A DNA stretch of 64,000 nt from an uncultured Caldilineales bacterium (GTDB lineage: Bacteria; Chloroflexota; Anaerolineae; JAAEKA01). Position 1 is the first letter of the stretch; each line of letters opens with the position of its first letter. A program made the position numbers and the translations under genes. This document shows positions 5,542 through 44,114 of this stretch, piece by piece. The stretch spans positions 35,447-99,446 of the forward strand of contig CALESQ010000120.1 of assembly GCA_937907455.1 (NCBI GenBank). The letters run 5' to 3'. The notes under the pieces were generated by a model that saw only the letters and a program-made list of their open reading frames with translations, did not search any database and had not been told where the DNA came from.

Positions 5542-5609
5542 CCATACGGGTCACCTTTACTCTTTACCTCTTACTCCCAGCTCATTACTCCTTACTCTCT
5601 GCCTGCAAC

Positions 5610-8594: not shown

Positions 8595-8813
8595 TCGTAA
8601 GCCATCACTGTTTTCTTGGAGACTGTTTAAAAAGCCTTAATCAGTGGTTTCGATACGCTGTTTTGACTGAAACACCGCGTCGGTTGCGGGCGTTATACTC
8701 AAAAACACGCCGGTTGGACGGGCTAACCCGCTACTCAACCACCTTGTTCACTGTGAAATACCGTTTTAAGCAGCTTCTTACTCCTTACTCTTTTTGATCC
8801 CCCAGGAGCCGCC

Positions 8814-19336: not shown

Positions 19337-20614
19337 ATGCCAGTCACAGCAGTCGTCGGTGCTCAATGGGGCGATGAGGGCAAAGGGCGTGTCATTGATT
19401 TTCTGGCCGAAAACGCCGATGTGGTCATCCGCTTTCAGGGAGGCGACAATGCCGGCCATACGGTGGTCAACCACCTGGGCACGTTTCGCCTCCACTTGAT
19501 TCCCTCCGGTATTTTTTACTCCAACACGCACAACATCATTGGCGCGGGGCCGGTGGTGAATCCCGACAGCCTGTTGCGCGAGATGGCCGAGCTGACAGCC
19601 GCGGGTGTGGATTTGAGCAATCTATGGCTTTCAGATCGCGCCCACATTGTCATGCCCTACCATGTGCAGCTAGATGGCTTGCAAGAGGCGGCACGCGGCG
19701 GTGCAGCCATCGGCACCACCAAGCGCGGCATTGGTCCGGCCTACAGCGACAAGGCCGCGCGCTGGGGGCTGCGCCTGGGCGACCTGCTTCATCCCGATTG
19801 GCTGCAGGCACGACTGGAGCAGATCATCCCGCGCAAAAACGCTGATCTTGAGCGTTTTGGTGCGCCACCGCTGACAACAGAGGCGTTGTACGCGCAGTGC
19901 CTGGAGTGGGCAGCGCAGCTTGGTCCGCGCATTATCAACGTGTTGCCGCTGATACGTGCCGCGGTAGAGGCCGATCAGGCCGTGTTGCTGGAGGGCCAAC
20001 TGGGCGTGATGCGTGACCTGGATTGGGGCATTTACCCCTACGTCACGTCATCCAACCCCACCGCAGCCTTTGCCGCGGCGGGTGCAGGCATCCCTCCCGG
20101 CAAGATCAGCCGTGTAGTGGGAGTGGTCAAGGCCTACTCCACCTGTGTGGGTGCCGGGCCTTTTCCGGTGGAATTGCTGGATGAAGAGGGCGGGCGGCTG
20201 CGCCGGCTGGGTCACGAATATGGTGCTACTACCGGACGCCCGCGCCGCGTGGGCTGGTTTGACGGTGTGGCTATCAGCTATGCCGTATGGCTTAACGGCA
20301 TGACCGATCTGGCCGTTACCAAGCTGGATGTGCTTGATACGCTGCCGGAGCTGAAGATTTGCACCGGGTACCTTCTGGGCAAAGAGCGGCTCAGCCACGT
20401 TCCTGAGACTGCCGTGCTGGAGCAGGTGACGCCATGCTACGAGACATGGCCCGGCTGGCTGCAACCTACCACGGCTTGCCGCTCATGGGATGATTTGCCT
20501 ATGGCTGCCCAGCGCTATCTGCGGCGCATTGAAGAACTTGCCGGCGCTCCGCTGACGTGGGTTTCTGTAGGTGCAGAACGTGAGGCGATGTTTCGGGTAA
20601 TGAATAAGGCGTGA
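19337..20614 (+). CDS. purA: adenylosuccinate synthetase
   Basis: [24 protein letters not shown] motifs. Confidence 0.9.
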
Positions 20615-20690
20615 TTGGTTTCGGTACGGGCGGCAGACTTGAGTCGTGCAGGTTGTCGCCTCACGCCGTCCTACTCAACCAGCGGAACGC

Positions 20691-20763
20691 TCATTCCCAA
20701 TTCTCAACTCTCAATTCTCCCTTCTCAACTCTCAATTCCCAATTCCCAATTTTCAACTCCCAT
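20691..20763 (+). repeat. 73-nt G-less heptamer-repeat tract (YTCYCAA x8) forming the entire purA-purB spacer up to the purB ATG
   Basis: direct reading; zero G on the sense strand; no Shine-Dalgarno. Confidence 0.8.
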
Positions 20764-25790: not shown

Positions 25791-27227
25791 TTATTCAGGA
25801 ATAATCGTCCAGCCGGGCCGGCCTTGCAGTTTCCACATGAAGGTTTCGTGGATCATGCGCTTCATCCAGGCGCCCGCCAGACCCATCTCCATGTGGGTGA
25901 CTTGCAGGTCGCGCCCGGCTTCGTTCGGGAAGCGGCGCTGATCCGGCACGACCGGATAGATGTTGATAACCACGGCTGCGCCATCGCGCAGCGAGTCGCC
26001 CATCGAGGCGATGCACGATGCGAACATCTCGGACATGCGCTCGTGGTGGGTCATGCGCCCCTTCTTGATCAGGTCAATCACGTTCAGCGCCACGACACGG
26101 CCAATGATGCCCGACACCATGCCGGTGCGCGGCGGCGCGGCAGTGATGGATGTGCCGTTGGGGGTGACATGGGGCATAGAAATGGGGCCAGGCGGGGCAA
26201 AGGCAATGCCCGCGGCAAAGATGTTGCGGTAGGTGGGGTTTTGGTACACCGAGGGCCAGGCATCGGGGTTTTCCACCAGCACTTCGTAGGGCAGGCCGTA
26301 GATGCCATCCGTCAGGATAAAGCCCGCCTTGTTGGTGAGCTTATCAGAAACATCCTGGCCGTCGCTGCCGATGTAGCGCAGCGGCGCGCCGGTGAATTGC
26401 GGGATCAGCATGGCAAAGTCATACGGCGTTTCACCGTAGTTGCCCTCGAAGTCTTCCCAGTGGATGCTGTTCGCCTCGACGCGATGTACCCCTTTTTGAA
26501 TCTCCCAGGCAATGTCGTAGTCTTTGAAGATCGAGTGGATGAAGTCCTCGCTGTGGTAGACCTTGCCGTGCTGACGCACGCTGACCCCGTGCACGCCGAA
26601 ATCGCCCAGCGCCTGCTCGTTGGAAAGCCAGGTGAGCTGCACGCGGTCGCGCACCCCCTGCTTCACCAGGTCGCGGTGAATGTTGATCAGATACTCGAAG
26701 CCCGCGCCCTGGCAGGTTGCGCCCGGATGGCCGGTGCCGATCACCATGCGGCTGGTCTCGCCCTTTTTCAGACGCTGCACGATCTCCAGATAGCGGTCGC
26801 GCGCCTCAATCGCGTGCGGCAGGGTGCAGATCGAATGGCTCAGGCCCGCTTTTGGCCCCAGACCGGGCGTGCCCTCGTAGTTCAGCTTGGGGCCGGTGGC
26901 AATGATCAGGTAGTCGTAAGGCTGGCGCAGCAGTGCGCCGTCATCTGCTTCCACCACCACATATTGATCCTGCGGGTCGGGGTGAATTTCCGTGGCCTTG
27001 CCAATCACCAGCTTGACGTGCATCCGGTCGTAAACCGGTTTTAGCTTGAAGGTAGTCTTTTGCGGGGCCATGTGGCCGATCCCGACCCAGACCCAGGAGG
27101 GCACAAATCCAAAGAAGTCATAGCGATTGATGACTGTAATATCATGCTCTTTGCCGAGCCGATTGCCAAGATACAATGCCGCTGTATGTCCGGCAAAGCC
27201 GGCACCGATCACCACAACTTTAGCCAT
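25791..27227 (-). CDS. sqr: sulfide:quinone oxidoreductase (FAD-dependent, SQR family)
   Basis: start at MAKVVVIGAGFAGHTAALYLG (GGAGG RBS); YDYLIIATGPKL matches the Aquifex-type SQR motif. Confidence 0.75.
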   Translation of the reverse strand: MAKVVVIGAGFAGHTAALYLGNRLGKEHDITVINRYDFFGFVPSWVWVGIGHMAPQKTTFKLKPVYDRMHVKLVIGKATEIHPDPQDQYVVVEADDGALLRQPYDYLIIATGPKLNYEGTPGLGPKAGLSHSICTLPHAIEARDRYLEIVQRLKKGETSRMVIGTGHPGATCQGAGFEYLINIHRDLVKQGVRDRVQLTWLSNEQALGDFGVHGVSVRQHGKVYHSEDFIHSIFKDYDIAWEIQKGVHRVEANSIHWEDFEGNYGETPYDFAMLIPQFTGAPLRYIGSDGQDVSDKLTNKAGFILTDGIYGLPYEVLVENPDAWPSVYQNPTYRNIFAAGIAFAPPGPISMPHVTPNGTSITAAPPRTGMVSGIIGRVVALNVIDLIKKGRMTHHERMSEMFASCIASMGDSLRDGAAVVINIYPVVPDQRRFPNEAGRDLQVTHMEMGLAGAWMKRMIHETFMWKLQGRPGWTIIPE

Positions 27228-27348
27228 AGAGGGCCTCCTGGAGAGAAACAGAGACAGGGGTGTTTTTGCAAACCACGGAGCCGCAGTAAACCGCATTCAC
27301 TCAGACGCGGTTTAGCCGGAAAGGTTACTTTTTCAGATGAAATGAAAG

Positions 27349-27377
27349 TTGACAAACTTTCCTGTCCTGATTATACT
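27349..27377 (+). promoter_or_regulatory. sigma70-type promoter of ilv leader (-35 TTGACA, 17-nt spacer, -10 TATACT)
   Basis: direct reading. Confidence 0.5.
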
Positions 27378-27417
27378 GCGCCTACGTTTGAGACAGGCAG
27401 TTTTTAGTTTATGTCCT

Positions 27418-27519
27418 ATGGCTACCACCGGTTCTACGCTCTTCAACCTCCTTGTCATCCTCATTAGTGTGCTCCTGGTACTTGCCGGGAGCCAATGGCA
27501 GCTGGGAACCGAGCGTTGA
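27418..27519 (+). CDS. ilvB leader peptide (33 aa, branched-chain-rich: MATTGSTLFNLLVILISVLLVLAGSQWQLGTER)
   Basis: run of 14 Leu/Val/Ile codons in 15; lies between the promoter and a rho-independent terminator upstream of ilvB. Confidence 0.55.
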   Translation: MATTGSTLFNLLVILISVLLVLAGSQWQLGTER

Positions 27520-27552
27520 ACCACTTGTAGCAACATCACAAGCATGTGCGAA

Positions 27553-27583
27553 ACCCCTCCCAGCCGCGGAGGGGTTTTTTATT
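27553..27583 (+). terminator. rho-independent attenuator terminator upstream of ilvB
   Basis: CCCCTCC-cagccgcg-GGAGGGG followed by TTTTTTATT. Confidence 0.65.
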
Positions 27584-27741
27584 GAATTGGATAGCAGCCG
27601 GTTAGCTAAATCAAGTCGCTTTCCGGAGTATGGCAAGCCGATCCAGGCGATGAAGCCTCTATCTGATCTGCCCAGCAAGGGCGGGCTCAGGTTGAGGCTT
27701 TTTGTATCTGGTTGGGCAAACACAGGAAAGGTGTGATTCAC

Positions 27742-29460
27742 ATGGAGAAGACAGGCGCTCAAATCGTTTGGGAGACCATTTTGCGCGAAGGCGTGGATAC
27801 GGTCTTCGGCTATCCCGGCGGTGCGACTTTGCCCATTTATGACGCTATGCCGGCATATCCCATCCGCCATGTTCTGGTGCGCCACGAACAGGCTGCCGTC
27901 CACATGGCCGAAGGCTGGGCGCGTGCCACGGGTAAGGTCGGTGTGGCGCTGGCTACCAGCGGCCCCGGGGCTACCAATCTCGTCACTGGTCTGGCAAATG
28001 CCATGATGGATTCGATCCCGATTGTGGCAATCACCGGTCAGGTGGCTACTCATCTGCTGGGCGGCGACGCCTTTCAGGAAACCGACGTGACCGGCATCAC
28101 CTTGCCGATCACCAAGTACAACTATCTCATCACCGACATTGCTGATCTGGGTGAGGCGCTGGTTGAAGCGTTCTATATTGCGCGTAGTGGGCGCCCCGGC
28201 CCGGTGCTGGTGGATATTTGCAAAGACGTACAAAACAGCAAAATTGACTGGGAATACTCTGCTGAGTTGACTCGCCCCGGTCTGGTGAAGGTGTTGCGCG
28301 AACAGCCCGACGCCGTGGTTGCCGCTGCCACGCTGATCAATCAGGCACAGCGCCCGCTGATTATTGCCGGCCACGGTGTGCAGATGGGCGAGGCTCAGGC
28401 TGAATTGATGGAGTTGGCAGAGCGGGCTGAAATTCCCGTGGTCACCACGTTGCTGGGTATTGGTGTCATTACCGAGAACCACCGCCTGGCCCTGGGCATG
28501 GGCGGCATGCACGGCGAGGCTGCCACCAATCACGCCGTGCAGGAATGCGATGTGTTGATAGCTGTGGGAATGCGCTTCGATGACCGTATCACCGGACGGT
28601 TAGATCAGTTTGCACCCAAAGCTAAAGTGATCCACTTCGAGCTGGATCCCTCCGAGGTGGGCAAGAACGTCAAACCCGCGGTGACTGTGCTGGGCGACTG
28701 CAAGCATACCCTGGGGCAACTGCTGCCGAACATCGAACCAAAGCAGCATCAGCAATGGCTGACAACCATTCATGAATGGCAGGACACCACCGGCAAGGTA
28801 GACATTGCCAACCAGGAAGTAGATGAGCTGATCCCGCCTTTTGTGATGCGCCAACTGTGGTATGCCACGCAGGGCAATTGCACGGTGGTGACAGACGTAG
28901 GCCAGCATCAGATGTGGGAGGCCCAATACTTCACCCATCTGCGCCCGGGCCAGTTGATCACCAGCGGCGGGCTGGGCACGATGGGCTTCGGCGTGCCTGC
29001 GGCTGTGGGAGCCAAGATTGGCCGCCCTGACCAATTGGTTTGGGTGATGGTGGGCGATGGTGGCTTCCAGCAAACCATGCAGGAATTGGGCACCATTATT
29101 CAGGAAAATGTCGGGGTGAAAATTGGTATCATCAACAACGGCTTTTTAGGCATGGTGCGTCAGTGGCAGCAGTTCTTCTATGAAAAGCGCTATGCCGGCA
29201 CGCCGATGATCAGTCCAGATTACATGAAGCTGGCTGATGCCTACGGCATTCCTGCATTGCGCGTGACCAAAAACGATGAGGTTTTTTCGGCCATGCAGCA
29301 GGCCAACGCTCATGATGGCCCCTTCCTGATCGAATTCCGTGTGATGGAAGAAGTAAACGTGTACCCGATGGTGGCCCCCGGCGCGGCCGTCGGTGATATG
29401 ATCCGCCGCCCCGGCCCCGCCATTGTCCAGGGCTATTCCGGTGTGCAACCGAGTTGGTAG
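27742..29460 (+). CDS. ilvB: acetolactate synthase large subunit
   Basis: start [27 protein letters not shown]; ThDP-enzyme motifs. Confidence 0.9.
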
Positions 29461-29696
29461 ATTGGTAAGTAGTCAGGAGTAAGTAGTGAGCAGTTGAAGA
29501 GTCTGTGTGAAAGCGTTGCAGAGAATTCCGAAGTGGCAATTTTACCCGTTGAGTTGCCGTAAGCTGGTTAACCCTGGCTTTAGGCGATTTGCCACTTCTG
29601 AATTCTGAATTTCGATTTCTTTAACGTTTTTCAGAGATTGTTTAACTCCTGACGATTTACTTCTTACTCCTTACTGTCTGCAAAAGGATTGAGACC
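29461..29696 (+). promoter_or_regulatory. 236-nt highly structured ilvB-ilvN spacer (nested inverted repeats; GGAGTAAGTAG / CTTACTCCTTAC flanks; 17-bp palindrome GAATTCCGAAGTGGCAA...TTGCCACTTCTGAATTC)
   Basis: direct reading; ilvB and ilvN are usually adjacent. Confidence 0.4.
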
Positions 29697-30230
29697 ATGA
29701 AACACACAGTCGTCGCATGGATGGAAGACCGCCCCGGTGTTTTGTCCCGCGTATCCAATTTGTTCCGCCGTCGTGGATTTAACATCGAAAGCCTGGCCGT
29801 TGGCCCCAGCGAAACTTCGGGCATCAGTCGCATGACCTTTGTGGTGGATGGCGATGAGCGCATGGTGGATCAGGCCGTCAAGCAACTGGAAAAGCAGATT
29901 GACGTGACCCGCGTCGAGGATGTCACCGATCAGCCGGTGGTCGTGCGCGAGCTGGCGTTGATCCGGGTGCGCACCGACACACAAACCCGCACCGAGATCA
30001 TGCAGATCGTGGATGTGTATCGTGCCCAGATTGTGGACATTGCTCTCGATTCGCTGATTATTCAGGTGGTGGGTGCGGAAGAGCGCATTAACAGCCTGAT
30101 TGATCTGCTGGACCACTATGGCATTCGTGAGATGGTGCGTACCGGACGCGTAGCCATCACCCGCGGGCGCGCTACACTGGAAAGCGCACAGCATAATGGC
30201 AACGGCAATGGCCGCAAGATGGGAATTTAG
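29697..30230 (+). CDS. ilvN: acetolactate synthase small (regulatory) subunit
   Basis: [42 protein letters not shown] domain. Confidence 0.85.
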
Positions 30231-30303
30231 TGCAATAGTACGCAGGTGAGATGGTGAGATAGCGGTTGTTCTATAGTCGCGGCACTGCTTTTGCCAGGCC
30301 TCG

Positions 30304-30408
30304 CTACACATTCACCAACTCACTCACTATCTCACTATCTTACTATCTCACTAACTCACTAATTCACTATCTCACTCCCACACTCCCACACTATCTCTAC
30401 TTTACCCC
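30304..30408 (+). repeat. 105-nt G-less octamer-repeat tract (CTCACTAT x~10) in ilvC 5' leader
   Basis: direct reading; preceded by complementary purine-type copy GGTGAGATGGTGAGATAG (30246-30263). Confidence 0.8.
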
Positions 30409-30417
30409 GAGGAATTC

Positions 30418-31422
30418 ATGGCAACCTTATTTTACGAAAAAGACGCAGATCTCTCCCGCCTGGCAGGCCGCAAAGTCGCTGTAATCGGTTATGGCAGCCA
30501 GGGGCACGCCCACGCGCTCAACCTGAAAGACAGCGGCGTAGACGTGATGGTAGGGCTTTATCCCAATTCGCCAAGCTGGAGCAAGGCTGAGGCCGCCGGT
30601 CTCACCGTCAAGACGGTGGAGCAGGCCGCGGACGAAGCTGATATCATCATGGTGGTAATCCCCGACACGGTGCAGGCGCGTGTGTACAAGCAAAGCATCG
30701 AACCGGCTCTGCGTCCCGGCAAAACATTGATGTTCGCCCACGGCTTCAACATTCGCTTCGGCCAGATTACGCCACCCGATTTTGTGGATGTGAGCATGAT
30801 TGCACCCAAGGCCCCCGGCCATCGTGTGCGTGAGGTTTATCAGGACGGTCAGGGTACACCCGCGTTGGTGGCCGTGCATCAGGATGCTTCCGGCCACGCT
30901 TTGGCCGATGCCATCGCTTACGGCGCGGGGGTCGGCTGTGCCCGCGCTGGTCTGCTGCTCACTACTTTCACCGAAGAAACCGAAACCGACTTGTTTGGCG
31001 AGCAGGCCGTGCTCTGCGGTGGCGTTAGCGAGTTGGTAAAATCCGCCTTTTATACCCTGGTGGATGCCGGTTATCAGCCTGAGGTGGCTTATTTTGAGTG
31101 TATGCACGAGCTGAAGCTGATCGTAGACCTGTTCTACCGCGGCGGCCTGAGCTACATGCGCTACTCGGTGAGCGACACCGCCGAACATGGCGATTATCAC
31201 AGCGGCCCCAAAGTGGTCACCGACGAGACCCGTGCCGCCATGAAGGGCATTTTGGCCGATATTCAGAGCGGCGCTTATGCCGAGGATTGGATTGAAGAAA
31301 ACGCCAAGGGGCGTCCCTGGTTCGATGATGTGCGCGCCCGTGAGCGCGATCAGCAGATCGAAACCGTAGGCCGTCAACTGCGCAGCATGATGCCCTGGCT
31401 GCATCCCGTGGAAGTCGAATAG
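30418..31422 (+). CDS. ilvC: ketol-acid reductoisomerase
   Basis: [40 protein letters not shown]. Confidence 0.9.
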
Positions 31423-31437
31423 TTGGTACGAGGAATA

Positions 31438-31648
31438 AGTACACAAGTAGACAAGGAAGAAGTACACAAGCAGACAAGGAAGAAGTACACAAGTAGACAA
31501 GGAAAAAGTACACAGGCAGATGTAGATAAGGAAGAAGTACAGAATACATAAAAATTCCCAGTCACCTGTGTACTTGTTTACCTGTCTACCTGTCTACCTG
31601 TATACTTGTTTACCTGTCTACCTGTCTACCTGTGTACTTGTCTACTTT
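31438..31648. repeat. paired inverted repeat arrays between ilvC and leuA: purine-type 23-nt units (GTACACAAGTAGACAAGGAAGAA x4) then pyrimidine-type octamers (CTACCTGT / CTACTTGT x~10)
   Basis: direct reading; arrays are partially complementary (e.g. GTACACAGG / CCTGTGTAC). Confidence 0.75.
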
Positions 31649-31664
31649 CCCGAAGGAGCCCTCC

Positions 31665-33308
31665 ATGCCCTCACAACCTGATCGCGATGTGATCCTGATT
31701 TTCGATACCACCCTGCGTGACGGCGAGCAGTCCCCGGGTGCTACGCTGACCACGCAGGAGAAACTGGAAATAGCCCGGCAGCTTGCCCGCCTCGGCGTGG
31801 ATATCATCGAAGCCGGTTTCCCGGCGGCCTCGCCTGGCGATCTTGAGGCTGTGCACCAGATCGCCGCGACCATCGGCTGTGAGCAACGCCTGGACAAGTT
31901 CGGCAATCCCGCTGCGCCGCCGGTGATTGCTGGTCTGGCCCGCGCTAACCATAACGACATCAACGCGGCCTGGCAGGCAGTGCAGGCCGCGCAGCGCCCG
32001 CGCATTCATACCTTCCTCGCCACATCGCCCATTCACATGGAGCACAAGCTGAAGATGACACCGGAACAGGTGGTGGAGCGCGTGCGTGAGATGGTGGGTT
32101 ATGCCCGCAGCCTGTGCCCCGACGTGGAGTTTAGCCCGGAGGATGCCGGGCGCAGCGACCCTCGCTTCCTGTATCAAGTGCTGGCCGTAGCCATTGAGGC
32201 CGGTGCTACCACGCTTAACATCCCCGACACAGTGGGCTACACTGTGCCCGCAGAGTATGGCAAGCTGATCCGCGATATCCGCGAAAACACTCCGGGAGCC
32301 CAAAACGTTGTCATCTCCTGCCACTGTCACAACGACCTGGGACTGGCGACAGCCAACACCCTGGCCGGCATCGAAAACGGCGCCCGCCAGGTAGAGGTGA
32401 CGGTGAACGGCATCGGTGAGCGTGCCGGCAACACCAGCTTGGAAGAGATCACCATGGCGCTTTACACCCGCCATCAGGTCTACGAAACCGACACCAACAT
32501 TGTCACCCATGAGATTCATCGCAGCAGCGACATGGTCAGCCGCTACACCGGCATGGTGGTACAGCCCAACAAGGCCATTGTCGGCGCCAATGCCTTCGCG
32601 CACGAGGCCGGCATCCATCAGGACGGCATGTTGAAGCACAAGCGCACCTACGAGATCATGGACGCGGGCACTATCGGCCTGAACCAAAGCAAACTGGTGT
32701 TGGGCAAGCATTCCGGTCGCCACGCCTTCCGTCTGCAACTGGAGCAGATGGGCTATAAGTTGGATGACAAAGACCTGGATGAGGTGTTTCGCCGCTTCAA
32801 GGAGCTGGCCGACAAGAAAAAAGTAGTTACCGACGGCGATCTGCAAGCCCTGGTAGGTGATGAACTCTACAAGCCGCCGGAGACCTGGCAGGTAGAGGAC
32901 GTGCAAGTGAGCTGCGGCACCACGGTGATCCCCACAGCCGTGGTACGCCTGCGCTACGTTGCCACCGGCGAAATCGTCACCGACGCCGGTTTCGGCACCG
33001 GCCCGGTAGATGCGGTGTATCAGGGTATCAACCGGCTGGTAGGTGTTCCCAACCGCCTGGTCGAGTTCGTGATCCAGGCCATTGATCAGGGCATGGACGC
33101 CGTGGGTGATGTGACCATTCGCATCGAAGCTAATGAGCTGATCGGCACGGTGGAGCGTGCGCAGGGCGGCCGCGGCCAGCGCATCTTCTCCGGACGTGGC
33201 ATTGATACCGACATCGTGGTAGCCAGCGCCAAAGCCTACATGCAGGCGTTGAACAAGATGCTGGCTGCCAAAGAAGAGCGCGAGTCGGTGCTGGCTTTGG
33301 GCGTATAG
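31665..33308 (+). CDS. leuA: 2-isopropylmalate synthase (long form with C-terminal regulatory domain)
   Basis: [42 protein letters not shown]; E. coli LeuA-like C-terminal domain. Confidence 0.85.
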
Positions 33309-33450
33309 CGAAGCGGCAAGCGGTAATCGGAGCAGAACATGCCGATATTCCATCCTGCTGCCCCTTCCTGCCATCTGCCCCTCCATCATTAACCACCCGT
33401 CCATTCTCGTTCTCACCTCTCAATTCTCACCTCTCCCCAAGGAGCCTCTC

Positions 33451-33621
33451 ATGTCCCACCCATCTCCCGCCTCGAACGCCAAACCGGCCAATCCCGTGCT
33501 GGTCGAATGGCTGGTAAAGCAGTACGATCAGCCTCAGCAGGTCCATTGTGGTCCCGAAGCCCTGGCCTGGGACATGCAGGGCCTGCAACAGGCCACAACC
33601 CTCCGCCCCAGTCTGAAATAG
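33451..33621 (+). CDS. possible small protein (56 aa) between leuA and gltB
   Basis: ATG preceded by CCCCAAGGAGCCTCTC, the same RBS context as leuA/ybdK; pyrimidine-repeat leader upstream; no homology support. Confidence 0.3.
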   Translation: MSHPSPASNAKPANPVLVEWLVKQYDQPQQVHCGPEALAWDMQGLQQATTLRPSLK

Positions 33622-33813
33622 CCGCCATGCTGTGGCGATTTTTGGCTGAACTTCATCCCATGATGGGGCGACCGAGCAAAGACGCTCCTGTTGTGTCATC
33701 ACATCCTGTGTCCACCGGCGAGGTCATACCGCCCTCAATTTACTGTGGGCTGCAAGGCCCGCCCGGCTGCGCCGCGCACATCATTGGTGGCCGCATTGAA
33801 TCGGGAGCATCGC

Positions 33814-36800
33814 ATGAAACCAAGCCTTAGCGGGCCAGGCCTTGCAGCGCCTGGCCCACTCTACGACCCCTCTTTTGAGCATGATGCCTGTGGCACCGGC
33901 TTTGTGGCTCAGCGCAGCGGTGCGCGCAGCCATCGTGTGCTGCAATTGGCCCTGGAGGCGCTGTGTAACCACGCCCACCGCGGCGCTGTGGCGGCTGATG
34001 GCCGCTCCGGTGATGGCGCTGGCATCCTCACCCAACTGCCGCACAAGCTGATCGCGCGCGATCTGGCCCGGCTTGGCGTGCGTACCCCCGCCCCGGGCGA
34101 TGTCGCCGTAGCGATGGTGTTCATGCCTCTGCGCAATCTGGTACACCGCGCTCGCAGCGAGACGCTGCTGCAGCAGGCCATTGGTGAATTCGGCTTGGAA
34201 TTCCTGGGCTGGCGTGAAGTCCCCGTCAACCTTGAGGCGCTGGGCGAATGGGCGATCAGCCTGCGACCCTACATCGTTCAGGCCTTTGTCGGGCGTCCCC
34301 CAGCGCTGGCTCGCGGCGACAGCTTCGAGCGTGCCCTTTACCTGGTGCGCAAACGCGCTACCCAGCTTTGCTGGGCCGAGGGCATCAGCAATTTCTATAT
34401 TGCCTCCTTTTCGGCTAAAACCATCGTCTACAAGGGGCTGTTCATGGCCCCGCAACTGGCTAATTTCTATCTGGACATGGCCGATGCCGATTTCGAGACC
34501 GCGCTGGCGGTTTTTCACCAGCGCTACAGCACCAACACCTTTCCCACCTGGGAGCGCGCCCAGCCTTTCCGTTTGCTCTGCCATAACGGCGAGATCAACA
34601 CCCTGCGCGGCAACATCAATTGGATGCGTGCCCGTGAAGCGGATCTCGTGCGTTCGGCTCGGCCTTATTTCGGCGAAGCAGTCAGTTATTTGGCGCCGGT
34701 GATCAGCGAGCGCGGCAGCGATTCCGCCATGCTCGACAACGCCCTCGATCTGTTGGTGCAGTCGGGCCGTGACATTCGCCACGCCATGCTGATGCTGGTG
34801 CCGCGCGCCTGGGAGCACGATCCCGAACTGTCTCCCGAGGCCCGCGCCTTCTATCACTATCATGCCTGCCTGCAGGAACCCTGGGATGGCCCCGCGGCGC
34901 TGGCCTTCACCGATGGCACGGTAGTGGGTAGCACACTTGACCGTAACGGCCTGCGTCCGGCGCGCTATCTGACCACCGCCGACGGGCTGGTGATTATGGC
35001 CTCGGAAGCTGGTTCCGTACACATTGATGAGCGCGACGTTACCGCCAAAGGCCGCCTTGGCCCGGGCGAAATGTTGGCCGTAGATACCGCGGGCGGCGAA
35101 ATGCTGGCTACCGGCGCAATCATCGAGCGCCTGGCCGCGGCCTATCCCTATCAACGCTGGCTGGACGAAAATCTGGTGCGGCTGGAAGATTTGGTGACGC
35201 CGGAGGAAAGCAGCTACGTGCCGCCGGTGACCGTCAGCACCCGCATGTTGCCTTCGCGTCGCCGCAATCTTGCCGCCGCTTCAGAGATCGCCCCTGCCGC
35301 CTCTGCTGCTGACAGCTCGCTTACCGCGCTGCAAGCAGCCTTTGGCTATAATCGTGAAGAATTGGTAGTGCTGTTTCGCCCGATGTGGCAGCAAGGCGCA
35401 GAGGCTATCGGCTCGATGGGCGATGACACGCCTTCGGCTGCGCTCAGCAGGCTTCCCCGTCCCCTGTTCCATTACTTCTATCAACGGTTTGCCGAAGTCA
35501 CCAACCCCCCGATTGATCCGCTGCGCGAGGCTCAGGTAATGTCGCTGGCGCAACGCGTCGGACGACGCAGCAGCCTGCTTGGCCGCGGGCCTGAGGCTGC
35601 GCGCCTGGTGGAGCTGGCCGGTCCGGTACTCAGCAACCAGCACATTCAGGCGTTGCGCGAGCTAAAGCAATACCTCGGCCCGGAGCGCGCCGAAGAGTTT
35701 CAGACCGCCACGCTCGATACCACCTGGCCGGTGGTGGATGGCGTAGATGGGCTGGAGGCGGCGGTGAAGCGGCTGTGCAATCAGGCAGTGGCCTCGGTGA
35801 AATCAGGCGTTAGCTTGCTGATCCTCAGCGACCGCGCCCTGCAAGCCCGACGCACGCTGATTCCTGCGCTGCTGGCTACCTCAGCCGTACATCAGCGTTT
35901 GATTCAGGCAGGTGTGCGCAACCAAGTGAGCCTGGTGATTGAAACCGGCGAAGCGCGCGATGTGCATCACCTGGCTGCATTGGTGGGCTTTGGGGCCAGC
36001 GCTGTGAACCCCTGGCTGGCGCTGCGTACCGTGGAAGACGAGGTGCGTAGCGCGGGTCGCCATGCCGAAGGTATCAGCGTGGCCGAGGGGGTTGAGAACT
36101 ATCGCAAAGCGTTGGAAAAGGGCCTGCTCAAAATCATGTCCAAGATGGGCATTACCACCGTAGACAGCTACTGCGGCGCGCAGATTTTTGATGTATTGGG
36201 TCTGGCGCAGGATGTGGTGGATCGTTACTTCCCCGGCACACCGGCGCGCCTGGGTGGTCGTGGCCTGGCCGACATCGCAGCCGACGTGCTGGCTTGGCAC
36301 GCCGCGGCTTATCCTGCCGGTGATGCATCCGCCGCTTTGGCCAGCTATGGCTTGTTCAAGTTCAAGCGTGACGGCGAATATCACAGCTATAATCCCGACG
36401 TAGTGCGCGCCCTGCACGAGACAACAGGCCTCTCCCTCCCCTCTTCCACCACCAAAGCAGCCCGGGGTGAGGGTGATTCTTCCTCTGCGTCAGGGGCCGG
36501 GGATGAGGGTGACTCTCCCTCTGCGTCAGAGGCCGGGGGTGAGGGCCTCTCCCCTGCTTACCGTCGCTACACCGAGCTGGTACAGGGGCGGCCTCTCACC
36601 ACGCTGCGCGACCTGCTGGACTTTGCTCCGCGCCGCGACCCTGTTGCATTGGACGAGGTAGAAGCACCGGAGGCTATTTTGCGCCGCTTCTCCACCGCGG
36701 CCATGTCGCACGGGGCGCTCAGCGGCATCACTCACGAAACGTTGGCCGTCGCTATGAATCGCCTGGGCGGAGCCTCCAACAGCGGCGAGGGCGGTGAGGA

Positions 36801-38568
36801 CGAAGCCCGCTTTGCTGATGAACGCAACAGCAAGATCAAACAAGTAGCCTCTGGGCGCTTCGGTGTTACACCGGCCTATCTGATGTCTGCTCAAGAGCTG
36901 CAAATCAAGATGGCGCAAGGTTCCAAGCCGGGCGAAGGCGGCCAGTTGCCGGGCCATAAGGTCACGGACGAGATTGCCCGACTGCGCCACAGCACCCCCG
37001 GCGTGGCGTTGATCTCCCCGCCGCCCCATCACGATATCTACAGCATCGAGGACCTGGCGCAACTGATTTTCGATCTGAAGCAGGTAAACCCTGATGCCGC
37101 GGTGTCAGTCAAGCTGGTGAGTGAAGCAGGTGTCGGCACGGTAGCTGCCGGAGTCGCCAAAGGCCACGCCGATCTAATCCACCTCAGCGGTGCCGATGGT
37201 GGTACAGGGGCATCGCCTCTTAGCAGCATCAAACATGCTGGTGGGTCGTGGGAATTGGGTCTGGCCGAGACGCAGCATACCCTGCTCACCAACGGTTTGC
37301 GCAGCCGCGTGCGTGTGCGCGTGGATGGCGGCTTTCAGTCGGGCCGTGATGTGCTGATCGCGGCCTTGCTGGGTGCGGATGAATTCAGCTTCGGCACCGC
37401 CGCTCTGATCGCCGTGGGCTGTAAAATGGCTCGCGCTTGCCACACCAACACCTGTCCCGTGGGCGTGGCTACGCAGCGCGCCGATCTGATTGCCAAATTC
37501 CCCGGCCAACCGGAGCATCTGATGGTATTTCTGCATCAGGTAGCTGAGGAGGTGCGGCAATTGTTGGCGCGGCTGGGTTATCGCACGTTACAAGAGGTAA
37601 TCGGCCACGCCGAGCTGCTCACCCAGGCAGTGAGCGGTGAAGCCGCCAGTTGGCTGGATTTGGAGCCGCTGCTGTGGACGCCAGACACCGGTCGCCCGCG
37701 TCGTGCCGTGGACGAGCGCAACGCGTTGCTGGCAGGTTCGGCTCTGGGCGACCGTCTGGCGGAGGACGCGCTGGACGATCTGGCTGATTTCAGCGCTCCG
37801 GTGCGACTGCGCTATGCCATCAGCAACACTGATCGCACAGTTGGGGCGCGGCTGGCCGGGCAAATCGCGCGGCAGCATGGTAATGTTGGCTTGCCTGCGG
37901 GCAGCATCACCGCCGAGTTCGAGGGTACAGCGGGCCAAAGTTTCGGTGCGTTTCTGTGCCACGGCATTCACCTGCATCTTACCGGTCAGGCCAACGACTA
38001 CATCGGCAAGGGTATGGGCGGCGGCGAAATTGTAGTTCGTCCGCGTGTTGATGCCGCCTATGTGTGGCATGAAAACGTTGTCATCGGCAACACGGCTCTG
38101 TATGGCGCTACTGATGGCGCGCTCTATGCCGCAGGCCGCGCCGGTGAGCGTTTTGCCGTGCGCAACAGCGGTGCGCAGGCAGTCGTGGAAGGCGTAGGCG
38201 ACCACGGCTGCGAATATATGACCGGCGGTGTAGCGGTGATCCTGGGTGACACCGGACGCAACTTCGGCGCGGGCATGACCGGCGGCCTGGCCTATGTCTA
38301 CGATCCTGCAGATGCCTTGCCCGGTCGCTACAATGCTCAGTTGATCACTCTGCGCCGTGTGCAGCGCGTCGCACACGAAAAACAACTTCGTGCGCTCATC
38401 CGTCATCATGCACAAACCACCGGCAGCCCGCGTGCCCGCGCCATCCTTAGCGACTGGGACACCGAGCTGGGCAACTTCTGGTTGGTGATCCCCAGAGACG
38501 CCGTCGCCGCCATTGAAGCCGTCAACGAAGGCGCAGAGAATGAAGCGCGCGAGGGGATAACAGGATGA
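33814..38568 (+). CDS. gltB: glutamate synthase large subunit
   Basis: start MKPSLSG...CGTGFVAQ (Ntn amidotransferase Cys1 after Met-processing), central, FMN and GXGXG domains; 1584 aa. Confidence 0.9.
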   Translation: MKPSLSGPGLAAPGPLYDPSFEHDACGTGFVAQRSGARSHRVLQLALEALCNHAHRGAVAADGRSGDGAGILTQLPHKLIARDLARLGVRTPAPGDVAVAMVFMPLRNLVHRARSETLLQQAIGEFGLEFLGWREVPVNLEALGEWAISLRPYIVQAFVGRPPALARGDSFERALYLVRKRATQLCWAEGISNFYIASFSAKTIVYKGLFMAPQLANFYLDMADADFETALAVFHQRYSTNTFPTWERAQPFRLLCHNGEINTLRGNINWMRAREADLVRSARPYFGEAVSYLAPVISERGSDSAMLDNALDLLVQSGRDIRHAMLMLVPRAWEHDPELSPEARAFYHYHACLQEPWDGPAALAFTDGTVVGSTLDRNGLRPARYLTTADGLVIMASEAGSVHIDERDVTAKGRLGPGEMLAVDTAGGEMLATGAIIERLAAAYPYQRWLDENLVRLEDLVTPEESSYVPPVTVSTRMLPSRRRNLAAASEIAPAASAADSSLTALQAAFGYNREELVVLFRPMWQQGAEAIGSMGDDTPSAALSRLPRPLFHYFYQRFAEVTNPPIDPLREAQVMSLAQRVGRRSSLLGRGPEAARLVELAGPVLSNQHIQALRELKQYLGPERAEEFQTATLDTTWPVVDGVDGLEAAVKRLCNQAVASVKSGVSLLILSDRALQARRTLIPALLATSAVHQRLIQAGVRNQVSLVIETGEARDVHHLAALVGFGASAVNPWLALRTVEDEVRSAGRHAEGISVAEGVENYRKALEKGLLKIMSKMGITTVDSYCGAQIFDVLGLAQDVVDRYFPGTPARLGGRGLADIAADVLAWHAAAYPAGDASAALASYGLFKFKRDGEYHSYNPDVVRALHETTGLSLPSSTTKAARGEGDSSSASGAGDEGDSPSASEAGGEGLSPAYRRYTELVQGRPLTTLRDLLDFAPRRDPVALDEVEAPEAILRRFSTAAMSHGALSGITHETLAVAMNRLGGASNSGEGGEDEARFADERNSKIKQVASGRFGVTPAYLMSAQELQIKMAQGSKPGEGGQLPGHKVTDEIARLRHSTPGVALISPPPHHDIYSIEDLAQLIFDLKQVNPDAAVSVKLVSEAGVGTVAAGVAKGHADLIHLSGADGGTGASPLSSIKHAGGSWELGLAETQHTLLTNGLRSRVRVRVDGGFQSGRDVLIAALLGADEFSFGTAALIAVGCKMARACHTNTCPVGVATQRADLIAKFPGQPEHLMVFLHQVAEEVRQLLARLGYRTLQEVIGHAELLTQAVSGEAASWLDLEPLLWTPDTGRPRRAVDERNALLAGSALGDRLAEDALDDLADFSAPVRLRYAISNTDRTVGARLAGQIARQHGNVGLPAGSITAEFEGTAGQSFGAFLCHGIHLHLTGQANDYIGKGMGGGEIVVRPRVDAAYVWHENVVIGNTALYGATDGALYAAGRAGERFAVRNSGAQAVVEGVGDHGCEYMTGGVAVILGDTGRNFGAGMTGGLAYVYDPADALPGRYNAQLITLRRVQRVAHEKQLRALIRHHAQTTGSPRARAILSDWDTELGNFWLVIPRDAVAAIEAVNEGAENEAREGITG
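36464..36560 (+). repeat. ~37-nt x2.5 tandem repeat inside gltB encoding a Gly/Glu/Asp/Ser-rich linker (GEGDSSSASGAG DEGDSPSASEAG GEG), REP-element-like sequence
   Basis: direct reading; shares GGGGTGAGGG / CCTCTCCCC motifs with the REP-like element. Confidence 0.5.
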
Positions 38569-38636
38569 CAAGGTGACAGGGTGACTATTTACTCCCTCCC
38601 CTTGTCACCCCCTCACCCCCATCCCCTCTTTACCCA

Positions 38637-38692
38637 CCTGTCTACCTGTCTACTTATCTACTTATCTACTAGTCTACATGTCTACCTCTCTT
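38637..38692 (+). repeat. octamer repeat array (CTACCTGT / CTACTTAT x7) in G-poor leuC leader
   Basis: direct reading; whole 38586-38710 leader is pyrimidine-rich. Confidence 0.75.
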
Positions 38693-38710
38693 CTCTCCCA
38701 ATCCCCGCCC

Positions 38711-40117
<1,407 letters not shown>

Positions 40118-40155
40118 CAGCAACGCCAAACGATGAAATGGCGACAGGAGTTTTT

Positions 40156-40746
40156 ATGGACGCATTGAAAACATTAACTGCAAGTGCTGCGCCTCTGCGC
40201 GCCGAGAATGTAGACACCGATCAAATCATCCCGGCGCGTTATCTCACCGCCGTGACCAAGGCAGGCATGGGCGATGGCTTGTTCGCTGCCTGGCGCTATG
40301 CCGCTGATGGTACACTCAATCCCGATTTTGTGTTGAACAACCCGGCATACCGCAGTGCTGCCGTACTGGTGGCCGGACGTAACTTCGGCAGTGGTTCGAG
40401 TCGTGAACACGCCGTTTGGGCGCTCACCGAGTATGGCTTTCGCGCGGTGATCGCTCCCGCCTTTGCCGATATTTTCTACAACAACTCACTGAAAAACGGT
40501 CTGCTCCCCATTCCGCTTGCCGAGGAACAGATAGCCATGTTGTGGGATTTGATCGAGGAAGAGCCTGACACGCAACTTGCCATTGATTTAGCTGCGCAAA
40601 CCGTGACCCTGCCCGACGGCCAGCAAGCTGAGTTTGCCATTGATCCCTATTGCAAGCATTGCCTTCTCAACGGTCTGGACGATTTGGGCTACCTGCTCTC
40701 GAAGGATGCTCAGATTGCCCGCTACGAGGAAAGTCGCCACTTCTAA
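40156..40746 (+). CDS. leuD: 3-isopropylmalate dehydratase small subunit
   Basis: MDALKTLTASAAPLRAENVDTDQIIPARYL; ACAGGAG RBS. Confidence 0.9.
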   Translation: MDALKTLTASAAPLRAENVDTDQIIPARYLTAVTKAGMGDGLFAAWRYAADGTLNPDFVLNNPAYRSAAVLVAGRNFGSGSSREHAVWALTEYGFRAVIAPAFADIFYNNSLKNGLLPIPLAEEQIAMLWDLIEEEPDTQLAIDLAAQTVTLPDGQQAEFAIDPYCKHCLLNGLDDLGYLLSKDAQIARYEESRHF

Positions 40747-40830
40747 ACCGCTCACTTCTCACTTTACTGGATGCTGGTTACTACTTACATCTTACTTCTT
40801 ACTACTCCCTCCTCCCCAAGGATCTCCCTA

Positions 40831-41072
40831 TGTCCCGCAAAGCTACGCAAAAAACACCCCCTGATCACGACGATCTGCATCCTTTCTGGATTGATCCCGA
40901 TGTTGAGGTGGCAATCACCGCTCAGATCAACGAGCATTTCCCGCCGGAAGGCGCACAACTCGATCTGGCTGAGTTGAAAACGCCGCCCGCGCTGATGGGA
41001 CGCTACAACCGCGGCGAGGCGCGCGAAGTAGATGTGGCGCGCTCGTTTGGAGAAGACGAGGCAGCGGCATGA
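40831..41072 (+). CDS. small hypothetical protein (80 aa) translationally coupled to leuB (ATGA overlap)
   Basis: ATG after CCCCAAGGATCTCCCT; pyrimidine-repeat leader upstream; no family recognised. Confidence 0.4.
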
Positions 41073-42154
41073 AGGTGACCATTGCGGTATTACCGGGCGA
41101 TGGCATTGGCCCGGAAGTGACTGCCGAGACGGTGAAGCTGCTCCAGACAGTGGCGACGCGCTTCGGTCATACCTTTGAATTTGAGACCGCGCTGTTAGGT
41201 GGCTGCGCTATTGACGCCACCGGCACGGCCCTGCCTGAGGCCACCGTAACCGTGTGCCGTGCTGCCGATGCCGTGCTGCTGGGCGCGGTGGGCGGCCCCA
41301 AGTGGGATAATCCCGCGGCCGCGGTGCGTCCCGAACAGGGCCTGCTGGGCATCCGCAAGGCGCTGGGCCTGTATGCCAATCTGCGTCCGGTGAAGCTGGT
41401 CCCCGCGCTGCTGCATGCCTCAACCATCAAGCCGGAAACGCTGGCCGGTGTGGATTTGCTGGTGGTGCGCGAGCTGACCGGCGGCATCTACTTCGGCGCC
41501 CGTCAGGAAGCCACTGTCGAGCAGCCCGTGGCCTTTGATACCATGATCTATCAGCGTGATGAGATCGAGCGCGTCGCTCGGCTGGCGGCCGAGGCGGCAC
41601 GCGGTCGCCGCGGCAAACTCGCCTCGGTAGACAAGGCCAATGTACTGGCAAGTTCCCGCCTCTGGCGACGTGTGGTGAGCGAGGTGCTAGCCGCAGAGTT
41701 CCCCGATGTGGCCCTGGAGCATGTGCTGGTGGATGCGATGGCCATGCATCTGATCCGTCGCCCTGCGGCCTACGATGTCATCGTCGCTGAAAACCTGTTT
41801 GGCGACATCCTCACCGATGAAGCCAGCATGTTAGCCGGCAGCATGGGCCTGTTGCCCAGCGCCAGCCTGGGCGAGTCGCTCAATCGTCACGGCCTGCCGC
41901 GCGGTCTCTACGAGCCGATTCACGGCTCTGCGCCCGATATCGCCGGGCAGGGCGTGGCTAATCCGCTGGCAACCATGCTTAGCGCGGCGCTGCTGCTGCG
42001 CCACTCCCTCGGTTTGGAGGCGGAAGCACAAGCCATCGAGACCGCAGTAGAGGCGGTGTTGGCTGCCGGGCTGCGCACTGCTGATATCGCCTATGGTGCA
42101 GCCGGGGCACTGGGCACTGCCGCCATGGGCGCTGCGGTGATCAGCAGGCTTTAG
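41069..42154 (+). CDS. leuB: 3-isopropylmalate dehydrogenase
   Basis: [20 protein letters not shown] canonical. Confidence 0.9.
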
Positions 42155-42196
42155 ACAACGATTTTTTAACACTTGCAACCCAAACAGGATTTTCTC

Positions 42197-43885: not shown

Positions 43886-43975
43886 CGAGCGAGAAGCGCA
43901 AAGGAAAAGTTCTCACCGCTGTCACTGCGAACGCAGTGAGGAGTCCCCTGCGCGCTGATGCAGTGGTTCTTTTGT

Positions 43976-44096
43976 CTTTAGTTTGCCCTCACCCCCGGCC
44001 CCTCTCCCAGGGGGAGAGGGGAGTGTCTGCTTTCCGGTTCTCTCCGCTTTCCGGTTCCCTCTTTTTCTGGTTCCCTCTCCCTTTGGGAGAGGGTTA
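43976..44096. repeat. REP/MITE-like palindromic element, copy B (with internal triplicated CTTTCCGGTTCCCTC sub-repeat)
   Basis: CCCTCACCCCCGGCCCCTCTCCCAGGGGGAGAGGGG ... GGGAGAGGGTTAGGGTGAGGG; between convergent cimA and membrane-protein gene. Confidence 0.6.
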
Positions 44097-44114
44097 GGGT
44101 GAGGGCTGCTTCCT

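Follow-up and report, generated by a model that had tools for sequence, protein, structure and literature searches.

G-free tandem-repeat leaders, often with complementary arrays at the preceding stop codon, in an ilv-leu operon and other genes of an Anaerolineae bacterium

We analysed a 64,000-nt stretch of contig CALESQ010000120.1 (assembly GCA_937907455.1) from an uncultured Caldilineales bacterium of the Chloroflexota, class Anaerolineae; this whole stretch is called the window below. In its ilv-leu operon, and at several genes outside it, the region directly upstream of the start codon consists largely of 7-8-nt tandem repeats that are depleted of G on the mRNA strand. We tentatively propose that these repeats are born by slippage and kept G-free on the mRNA, which would give translation initiation a leader devoid of structure, of start codons and of Shine-Dalgarno (SD) decoys. 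An earlier note on this DNA had described the repeats and was right in substance, while being incomplete in anatomy: the complementary purine arrays and hairpins, the single-operon context, the copy-number variation between strains and the spread outside the clade were absent from it.

G-free tandem repeats lie directly upstream of start codons

The tract in front of ilvC (30304-30408) reads CTACACATTCACCAACTCACTCACTATCTCACTATCTTACTATCTCACTAACTCACTAATTCACTATCTCACTCCCACACTCCCACACTATCTCTACTTTACCCC. It has no G in 105 nt (28% A, 42% C, 30% T) and is the longest run in the window that lacks any one base. The second-longest G-less run, 74 nt with zero G, is the purB leader at 20690-20763. At 30% G and over both strands, the expected number of G-less runs is ~1e-7 for lengths of at least 74 nt and 2e-12 for 105 nt. 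Arrays called with Tandem Repeats Finder (TRF) have a period of 7-8 and 3.6-10.2 copies, as in long simple sequence repeats (5-11-nt unit, beyond chance), and comprise at least seven different repeat units within the window. These calls confirm that the G-free leaders of the earlier note are real and that each gene has its own 7-8-nt unit: TCTCACC-, TTACTAC- and CTTTACT-type units differ by locus, while the architecture, G-depleted in sense and directly upstream of the start, is common to the loci.

The position of the arrays is far from random. Of the ten period-7/8 arrays that have three or more copies, nine lie in non-coding DNA, which by a curated gene map makes up 9.3% of the window (P=5e-9). 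When 60-nt windows with at most three G were collected from either strand, all were sense-oriented at start codons, namely those of the chbG-like gene, purB, ilvC, a small open reading frame (ORF; sORF1) and leuC on the plus strand and of the CoA-transferase, XdhC and peptidase genes on the minus strand; the sole exception is a purine-type segment after the ilvB stop codon. The earlier note had named equal frequency in coding regions or on antisense strands as the sign of a compositional artefact, and the tracts do not show that sign. The distance from tract end to ATG is 0-20 nt. The ilvC tract ends 9 nt before the ilvC ATG (30418), directly 5' of the SD GAGGAA, the purB array runs into the purB ATG (20762), and the array upstream of leuA (ACCTGTGTACTTGT...) ends 19 nt before the leuA ATG (31665). 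The ribosome-binding context CCCCAAGGAGCC, which the earlier note had picked out as recurrent, is exact at 33435 and has one mismatch at 31649 and 8799 and two at 40814, all of them start sites. The arrays, tracts and associated features are listed in Table 1.

The ilvN-ilvC spacer is the same, except for one single-nucleotide polymorphism, in seven independent assemblies (NCBI, JGI, ENA, Logan), and JGI contig 3300014349 matches the window at 100% over 14 kb. Since the spacer recurs in seven independent assemblies, the tracts are not assembly artefacts.

In addition to position, the sequence variation within the arrays indicates selection on the mRNA strand. G accounts for just 4 of the 73 off-consensus positions in seven start-proximal arrays (C, 32; T, 23; A, 14), an avoidance with P=1e-8 when the three alternative bases are expected in equal numbers. 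Lacking G, the G-free tracts are also devoid of start codons (ATG, GTG or TTG) and of SD-like triplets (GGA, GAG or AGG). The purB, leuC, chbG-like, CoA-transferase and XdhC starts carry arrays and have no SD, and the remaining array-bearing starts have a strong one.

Table 1 Repeat arrays, G-poor tracts, hairpins and the upstream control region in the window
Feature	Position	Strand	Details
G-free tract, ilvN-ilvC spacer	30304-30408	+	CTCACTAT x6.8 (30323-30376), CACTCCCA x2.5 (30373-30392)
Hairpin from ilvN stop codon	30228-30353	+	Inverted repeat; predicted RNA fold -51.4 kcal/mol, z -5.1
purB G-free array ATTCTCA/TTCCCAA x9	20690-20763	+	TRF ATTCTCA x9.1 (20693-20756); no SD
ilvB-ilvN spacer hairpin	29463-29676	+	Inverted repeats; predicted fold -92.5 kcal/mol, z -8.5
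Purine-type array AAGTACACAAGTAGACAAGGAAG x3.7	31431-31541	+	5' arm of ilvC-leuA hairpin; begins 9 nt after ilvC stop
Pyrimidine-type array ACCTGTCT/ACTTGTTT x10.2	31564-31645	+	3' arm of ilvC-leuA hairpin
G-poor tract with TCTCACC x3.6 (33411-33435)	33371-33441	+	Ends in CCCCAAGGAGCC; precedes small ORF 33451-33621
Hairpin including gltB stop codon	38563-38624	+	Inverted repeat; (TGACAAGG)x2.5 pairs with CCTTGTCACCCCCTCACC; z -2.7
G-poor unstructured leuC leader	38625-38710	+	ACCTGTCT/ACTTATCT x7 (38636-38691); no SD; ATG 38711
G-free tract TTACTAC x4.1 (40778-40806), 42 nt	40778-40819	+	Precedes small ORF 40830-41072
Two adjacent arrays CAAGTAGA x8.5 (5474-5541) and CTTTACT x6.3 (5555-5598)	5474-5598	+	Upstream of chbG/HpnK-like ATG (5610)
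CTTACTC x2 followed by CCCCCAGGAGCC	8775-8813	+	Precedes GCS2-family gene (ATG 8814)
G-poor leader, 6 G in 60 nt, CACCATT x2	3442-3482	-	Runs into CoA-transferase ATG (3441); no SD
Promoter-like site, leader peptide and intrinsic terminator upstream of ilvB	27349-27583	+	Attenuator arrangement

Complementary arms and predicted RNA structure

Most pyrimidine arrays form the 3' arm of a predicted hairpin whose 5' arm is a reverse-complement, purine-rich array further upstream, and in the spacers only 0-5 nt separate the upstream stop codon from the stem. In the ilvN-ilvC spacer, the G-free tract contributes its first CTATCTCAC repeats to the stem, opposite the purine arm GGTGAGATGGTGAGATAG (30244-30262). 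In the ilvB-ilvN spacer, the purine arm GGTAAGTAGTCAGGAGTAAGTAGTGAG (GGTAAGTAGTCAGGAGTAAGTAG, 29463-29490) faces TTTACTTCTTACTCCTTACTG (TTACTTCTTACTCCTTACT, 29656-29676), the latter containing the TRF array TTACTCC x2.7 (29657-29675) upstream of ilvN. The ilvC-leuA stem has a predicted energy of -81.3 kcal/mol (z -5.1 vs shuffled sequence), and the complementary arms between gltB and leuC are TGACAAGGTGACAGGGTGAC (38566-38585) and CCTTGTCACC. Upstream of purB, a hairpin without repeats (20613-20683) lies directly against the purA stop codon and precedes the array. The two arrays upstream of the chbG-like gene are not mutually complementary, and shuffled sequence is predicted to be more structured than their region (z +2.1).

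Between the stem and the next start codon, 64-86 nt of G-poor repeats are predicted to be unpaired in the ilvN-ilvC, gltB-leuC, purA-purB and leuA-sORF1 spacers; minimum free energy folds leave the tracts unpaired. We also computed partition-function folds of the region from -150 to +100 around 46 starts and compared the ten array-bearing genes with the rest. The mean unpaired probability was 0.65 for the array genes vs 0.47 for the others at -25..+15 (P=2e-5) and 0.67 vs 0.40 at -70..-16 (P=9e-6), with values of 0.93 for ilvC and 0.90 for purB in the latter interval.

For most spacers, the predicted fold of the sense RNA is less stable than that of the antisense RNA (ilvC-leuA, sense -78 vs antisense -97; leuA-sORF1, -23.5 vs -39), indicating that the imperfections of the arms are A.C and not G.U on the mRNA. 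The ilvB-ilvN spacer is an exception, in that a sense-biased inner hairpin gives -92.5 for sense vs -62 for antisense. The spacer hairpins do not resemble intrinsic terminators, as none of them is followed by a T-run, and terminator-like sites in the operon occur at chance level (14 found vs 15.5 expected). At gathering score, Rfam matched only a tRNA-Sec gene in the whole window, and a permissive Rfam scan of 27200-44300 returned only chance hairpin matches to plant miRNA precursors. We dropped the presence of stop codons in all three frames of the purine arms as independent evidence: it is true, and it follows from the arms being C-poor, since all three stop codons lack C.

Copy number varies between strains and units turn over between orthologues

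To place these spacers in an evolutionary context, we used the best IlvC matches, which came from an Anaerolineae metagenome-assembled genome (MAG; L001, 91%), an Anaerolineales MAG (L002, 84%) and an Ardenticatenaceae MAG (L003, 73%), together with strains that have the same IlvC and are 99.2-99.8% alike. Among the strains, the sole indels in 6.5-16 kb fall in the ilvC-leuA arrays (+8 and -24 nt). Strain L081 has one added 8-mer, CTACCTGT, in the pyrimidine array, and in contigs L084-L086 the purine arm lacks one 23-mer, and a rearrangement has left the pyrimidine arm 1 nt shorter overall. The arrays therefore show the slippage-like instability of copy number that characterises long simple sequence repeats. 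The same loci tend to disrupt assembly: metagenome contigs L083, L085, L086 and L087 end inside arrays and L087 has an inverted junction at the ilvC-leuA hairpin loop, which indicates that the arrays break or mis-join short-read assemblies.

The orthologous spacers of L001, L002 and L003 keep the architecture while their units differ, so the leaders pass the comparison with related genomes that the earlier note had proposed. The ilvB-ilvN units are GGTAAGTAG/CTTACTC in the window, ATTGGTA/TACCAAT in L001 and CGGTAAT/GATTACCG in L002. Between ilvN and ilvC, the window has CTCACTAT, L002 has TCTACCAA x6.6 with TTGGTAGA x3.6, and L003 has a GATTACTG-type unit. Between ilvC and leuA, the unit of the window is shared by L001 and is replaced by a GTGAAAC-type unit in L002 and by GGAGTGA/CTCCCCA in L003. 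In L003 and in L067, G-free arms as long as 100 nt lead directly into an ATG without an SD. The ilvC leader of L001 has lost its repetitiveness, yet contains only 3 G in 66 nt (P=2e-7). In addition, the alignable part of the ilvC-leuA spacer (31420-31670 vs L001:11000-11189) is 93% identical, whereas the flanking ilvC and leuA DNA is 84-85% identical. In the only hairpin that could be aligned (window, two strains and L001), variation was very low and we found no compensatory pairs.

The pentamer CCAAT on the mRNA, with ATTGG in the partner arm, recurs in the units of purB (20690-20763), L001:9325-9352, L002:9937-9989 and L003:5219-5270. This enrichment in the units of the clade is marginal and was noticed post hoc; a common sequence motif (TAC/CAC cores, CCAAT) was rejected, as it does not go beyond a post hoc search of G-free 8-mers.

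An extra 165-nt hairpin occupies the loop of the ilvB-ilvN stem (29490-29655) and is not present in L001 or L002. Its arms (29522-29539 and 29589-29606) are 94% complementary, with 12 G.U pairs on the sense strand, and folding favours the sense over the antisense strand by 30 kcal/mol. This hairpin may be an insertion or a structured RNA in its own right.

The ilv-leu arrays are intercistronic within one operon

NCBIfam and Pfam identified ilvB, ilvN, ilvC, leuA, gltB, leuC, leuD, leuB, cimA and purB, as well as a ChbG/HpnK-like deacetylase, a GCS2-family ligase and a MobA-like transferase, which bears out the gene names used by the earlier note. The only strong promoter-like site in 27000-44500 is TTGACA-17-TATACT at 27349. 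It is followed by a Leu/Ile/Val-rich leader peptide of 33 aa (27418-27519; MATTGSTLFNLLVILISVLLVLAGSQWQLGTER, starting MATTGSTLFNLLVILISVLLVLAG...) and by a G+C hairpin with a T-run (27551-27583), and the arrangement of promoter, leader peptide and terminator is kept in the three related genomes L001, L002 and L003. No strong internal promoters or terminators were found in the spacers. Because the sole strong promoter-like site and the attenuator precede ilvB, the ilv-leu arrays lie between cistrons of one attenuator-controlled operon.

The earlier note had also assigned the array at 5474-5541 to mocA as its leader. This assignment is probably wrong, and we rejected it. The mocA gene (MobA-like, 4706-5317, minus strand) has a promoter-like site of its own at 5352-5324 with an extended -10 box (TGnTATAAT), and its ATG at 5317, which opens a typical MobA N-terminus (AIVPAAGLSSRMG), lies 7 nt after the -10 box; judged from these signals, mocA looks leaderless. 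A terminator-like hairpin lies upstream of mocA on the minus strand. A plus-strand promoter-like site (5429-5457) precedes the arrays at 5474-5598, which would then lie in the 5' untranslated region (5'UTR) of the chbG-like gene, with 5474-5541 probably as its purine-type strand.

Apart from the named genes, the operon contains two small ORFs, 33451-33621 (56 aa, before gltB) and 40830-41072 (80 aa), the stop codon of the latter overlapping the leuB start as ATGA. No Pfam family was assigned to either. Both are recognisably conserved in L001, and the ORF at 40830-41072 also in L002.

Tandem-array stems extend beyond this lineage

Using TRF on the fetched ilvC loci, we found period-7/8 arrays in the same operon of the Vicinamibacteria MAGs L015-L017 and of the Chloroflexota MAG L004. 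Among the metagenome matches listed, at no more than 73% identity, at least 22 of 80 contigs carry such arrays in the same operon. In L143 the spacer reads TAG-(AGTGAGTC)x4-loop-(CTGACTCA/CTGACCCA)x4-TTACAGGAGCC...GTG, and L093, L158, L113, L152 and L016 are alike. When a partner was defined as two units with at most two mismatches within 300 nt, 42 of 112 arrays in the fetched ilvC loci among the matches listed had a reverse-complement partner, vs 2 in the reversed-sequence control and 10 in the complement control. The start-proximal arm is not G-depleted in those other lineages. Thus, the feature has two layers, a widespread stem of intercistronic tandem arrays and, in this Chloroflexota lineage, a G-free and often over-extended start-proximal arm. 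Arrays that grow in a short spacer could by themselves yield a stem reaching from stop codon to SD, and the geometry alone is no proof of function.

In L004 (5863-6597), GAGGACG/GAGAACC x16 follows ilvC and a partly complementary CAGTTCT x12 precedes leuA; these arrays flank an insertion of ~500 nt of non-repetitive sequence.

A possible role in translation initiation and its alternatives

How might such leaders be produced and kept? In the account that we tentatively favour, replication slippage would generate repeats in the untranslated operon spacers and in one primary 5'UTR, and selection would keep them without G on the mRNA strand. RNA made of C, U and A only is unable to form G-C or G-U pairs, so that the 40-100 nt before the next start would be a structure-free and decoy-free landing strip for the small ribosomal subunit, acting as a standby site or an S1-type platform, where random spacer RNA in a genome of 60% G+C would fold tightly. 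The strip would replace the SD in about half of the cases (purB, leuC, chbG-like, CoA-transferase). The first repeats would pair with a complementary purine-rich array, or with a G-rich segment of another kind, at the 5' end of the spacer; the stop-adjacent hairpin formed in this way would probably cap the upstream cistron and bound the single-stranded strip. We infer a role in translation because the tracts are flush with the start region, five of the starts have no SD, and the start regions are predicted to be accessible. The predicted single-stranded tract directly in front of the SD or start codon is what an S1 or standby enhancer would look like, and the variation of the units between loci and orthologues argues against a sequence-specific binder. 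Accordingly, the rut site, the S1/CU-rich enhancer and the binding array, which the earlier note had put on an equal footing, are not equally likely.

Several points weigh against this account. Starts without an SD are common throughout the window, so that the absence of an SD need not be specific to the array genes. The ilvB-ilvN and ilvC-leuA spacers fold almost wholly into hairpins, and their pyrimidine arm would be paired unless the stem opens. In L001, the long arm before leuC is a purine-type array (CAAGTAGA x9.4), so that a long pyrimidine arm is a tendency and not a rule. C-rich, G-free, unstructured RNA of 75-105 nt also looks like a Rho loading site. Finally, a passive model, in which repeats expand anywhere and G-free ones alone are tolerated beside starts, fits the same data. 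The proposed role in initiation and the alternatives below are not mutually exclusive.

The passive model, stated fully, is that the arrays are tolerated junk that expands by slippage and template switching in any free spacer between a stop codon and an SD, with purifying selection removing only the versions that bring structure, start codons or SD decoys close to the start site, so that G-free arms are left there. The differences of unit at every locus and between orthologues, the polymorphic copy number and the lack of compensatory change in the only alignable hairpin all suit it, the flush fit to the stop codon and the SD is expected by construction in a short spacer, and arrays with reverse-complement partners are common in unrelated soil bacteria without G-depletion. 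However, spacers of 140-250 nt are kept at the same junctions in four lineages against the usual deletion bias of bacteria, the ilvC-leuA spacer is better conserved between the window and L001 than the coding DNA beside it, and G-depletion has outlasted the decay of the repeats in the L001 ilvC leader. We regard junk as an unlikely explanation of the arrays.

Rho utilisation (rut) sites are C-rich, G-poor, unstructured and untranslated RNA. Were the tracts rut sites between cistrons, downstream transcription would need prompt ribosome loading, giving an enforced polarity or a second layer of attenuation. With 41-42% C, 0% G over 74-105 nt and 24-26 YC dinucleotides, the tracts have the composition of a rut site; they are predicted to be 90-93% unpaired, and they lie in untranslated spacers of more than 80 nt within a long operon. 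Yet a rut site has no need to be flush against the start region, and an essential biosynthetic operon would pay a high price for a strong constitutive rut in front of almost all of its cistrons. To our knowledge, cyanobacteria have no Rho. Heptamer arrays comparable to those described here nevertheless occur in them (PMC4679880). No rho gene is encoded within the window. On balance we consider Rho loading quite unlikely as the reason for the tracts.

Another suggestion, to which we would give similarly little credence, makes the stem itself the element. A stem of two complementary 7-8-nt arrays, reaching from the stop codon to the ribosome-binding site, would be a hitherto undescribed multi-phylum element that actively hands ribosomes, or mRNA stability, from one operon gene to the next, and in this lineage its start-proximal arm would have been extended into a G-free runway able to replace the SD.

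In a narrower form, an intercistronic hairpin could serve as a 3' stabiliser, an RNase III processing site or a stop-start bridge for re-initiation. Among 15 stems read by eye in Chloroflexota, Vicinamibacteria and unassigned soil contigs, ~13 have their 5' end 0-5 nt past the stop codon and their 3' end 7-24 nt short of the start codon; shuffled sequence folds far less stably (z -5 to -8.5), the reverse-complement partnering is strongly non-random, and the ilvC-leuA stem-loop is more conserved than its flanking genes. A hairpin alone leaves 60-90 nt of unpaired G-free repeats unexplained (ilvC, purB, leuC, sORF1), its sense RNA is usually less stable than the antisense RNA, the only alignable hairpin shows no covariation, and the geometry may arise by construction, so such a role would by itself be an improbable account of the arrays.

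The repeats could also be a binding array in which an abundant single-strand RNA binder with cold-shock, KH or S1 domains coats the leader, one protomer per 7-8 nt. The footprint of a cold-shock domain fits this period, and CCAAT/ATTGG, the core motif of the Y-box and of cold-shock-domain proteins, recurs in the purB, L001, L002 and L003 units as described above. In addition, S1, Csp and CsrA have been proposed as binders of TAACTGA repeats (PMC4679880), and the window encodes a protein with two S1 domains. Set against this, there is no single recognition sequence, as the units vary by locus and by orthologue, the CCAAT enrichment is marginal and post hoc, and the L001 ilvC leader is G-depleted without periodicity; we consider the binding array improbable. 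A phase-variable contingency locus was rejected: the genes are housekeeping biosynthetic ones (ilv, leu, pur), and although copy number varies, 7-8-nt units in an untranslated spacer shift no reading frame and no mapped promoter spacing.

Relation to known repeats

Tandem repeats at start codons have been noticed for decades in cyanobacteria, Beggiatoaceae and Bacteroidetes without an accepted function. The element described here is of this known but unexplained kind, in another form. One of the nearest cases is that of the TAACTGA heptamers in marine Beggiatoaceae, cyanobacteria and Bacteroidetes, which lie in forward orientation a few nt from starts, often without a canonical ribosome-binding site and also before housekeeping genes; a role in translation was proposed, with S1, Csp or CsrA as possible binders (MacGregor 2015, PMC4679880). 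There, one unit is used genome-wide in 169 sets of 2-6 copies, of which one set is inverted (PMC4679880). The arrays in the window are likewise tandem 7-nt units in forward orientation close to start codons. Unlike TAACTGA, whose unit contains G, they have locus-specific units, up to 10 copies, a G-free mRNA strand and usually an upstream complement. Dimers of TAACTGA, CCCCAAT, CCCCAGT, TTGGTCA, CAACAGT and TTTTGAA are absent from both strands of the window. Acidobacteriota contigs contain arrays one base from TAACTGA, namely AAACTGA/GAACTGA in L017:11042-11076 and AACTGAG in L070:1201-1226 and 9221-9252.

STRR families consist of a few fixed heptamer units dispersed through cyanobacterial genomes. 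No such fixed, dispersed unit, as in the TAACTGA and STRR families, is found in the window, although AATTCCC, the unit at purB, differs by one base from the STRR1 unit AATCCCC. In Nostoc recF and recO, contiguous heptamers lie near or overlap the starts and a role in translation was suspected (bioRxiv 10.1101/2022.06.06.494920). The arrays described here differ from these cyanobacterial cases in the systematic exclusion of G and in the stop-adjacent hairpin. They also differ from long simple sequence repeats (5-11-nt units) at large, a statistically defined class (Mrazek et al. 2007, summarised in PMC4679880) whose members are non-coding, sporadic across phyla and due to polymerase slippage, with no rule of position or strand; here the arrays are G-free in mRNA sense at starts, with a complement after stops.

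Other systems resemble single aspects of the arrays. Like rut sites, the tracts are C-rich, G-poor, unstructured and untranslated RNA of at least 70 nt; unlike them, they consist of tandem repeats that abut the start codon. S1-dependent pyrimidine- or AU-rich enhancers, standby sites and the G-poor omega leader of tobacco mosaic virus support initiation with a weak or absent SD, and share with the tracts a single-stranded, G-poor leader directly 5' of the start region. The known bacterial enhancers of this type are short (10-30 nt) and non-repetitive, and we know of no native bacterial leader of 75-105 nt with zero G that has been described. REP/BIME elements of enterobacteria and MIRU elements of mycobacteria are intercistronic, vary in copy number and have been connected with mRNA stability or translational coupling. 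The present arrays are, like them, repetitive hairpin-forming or tandem elements lodged between cistrons, but have locus-specific units of 7-8 nt in place of a shared sequence in units of 35-100 bp, and are not dispersed palindromes. In the literature that we searched, the coverage of which is incomplete, we found no report of arrays in Chloroflexota or Acidobacteriota, of G-exclusion or of stems made from complementary arrays.

The locus thus adds Chloroflexota and, in a different form, Acidobacteriota to the start-codon repeats, along with constraints that have no precedent in the earlier cases. The free choice of unit sequence, the exclusion of G, the complementary array at the preceding stop codon and the change of copy number between strains together suggest a function by composition or structure rather than through a specific binding site. 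If a G-free strip indeed drives SD-independent initiation in a GC-rich organism, it would offer a design rule for insulating the cistrons of synthetic operons. For annotation, the tracts give rise to spurious ORFs, as the earlier note had warned, to wrongly extended starts (for example 31632 for leuA, 20615 for purB and 5554 for mocA, the last of these produced by translation of the repeat) and to broken metagenome assemblies.

Other features of the window

The protein with two S1 RNA-binding domains mentioned above (50962-51825, 287 aa) has Lys/Arg-rich termini, and its gene contains T-less DNA runs at 51035-51073 and 51727-51777. From its domains, it is a conceivable single-strand RNA binder, without a link to the arrays. 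The tRNA-Sec gene matched by Rfam lies at 6505-6599 (71 bits), indicating that the organism uses selenocysteine.

We also observed a REP- or MITE-like palindromic element of ~110 nt in two copies, at 1816-1898 and 43985-44106 (CCCTCACCCCCGGCCCCTCTCCCAGGGGGAGAGGG ... GGGAGAGGGTTAGGGTGAGGG). The copy at 43985 encloses GCTTTCCGGTTCCCTCC x2.9 and sits between convergent genes. A related 36-nt repeat (x2.3, 36462-36545) lies in frame inside gltB, where it encodes ARGEGDSSSASGAGDEGDSPSASEAGGEG, and the gltB match in L001 spans ~23 codons fewer than gltB of the window.

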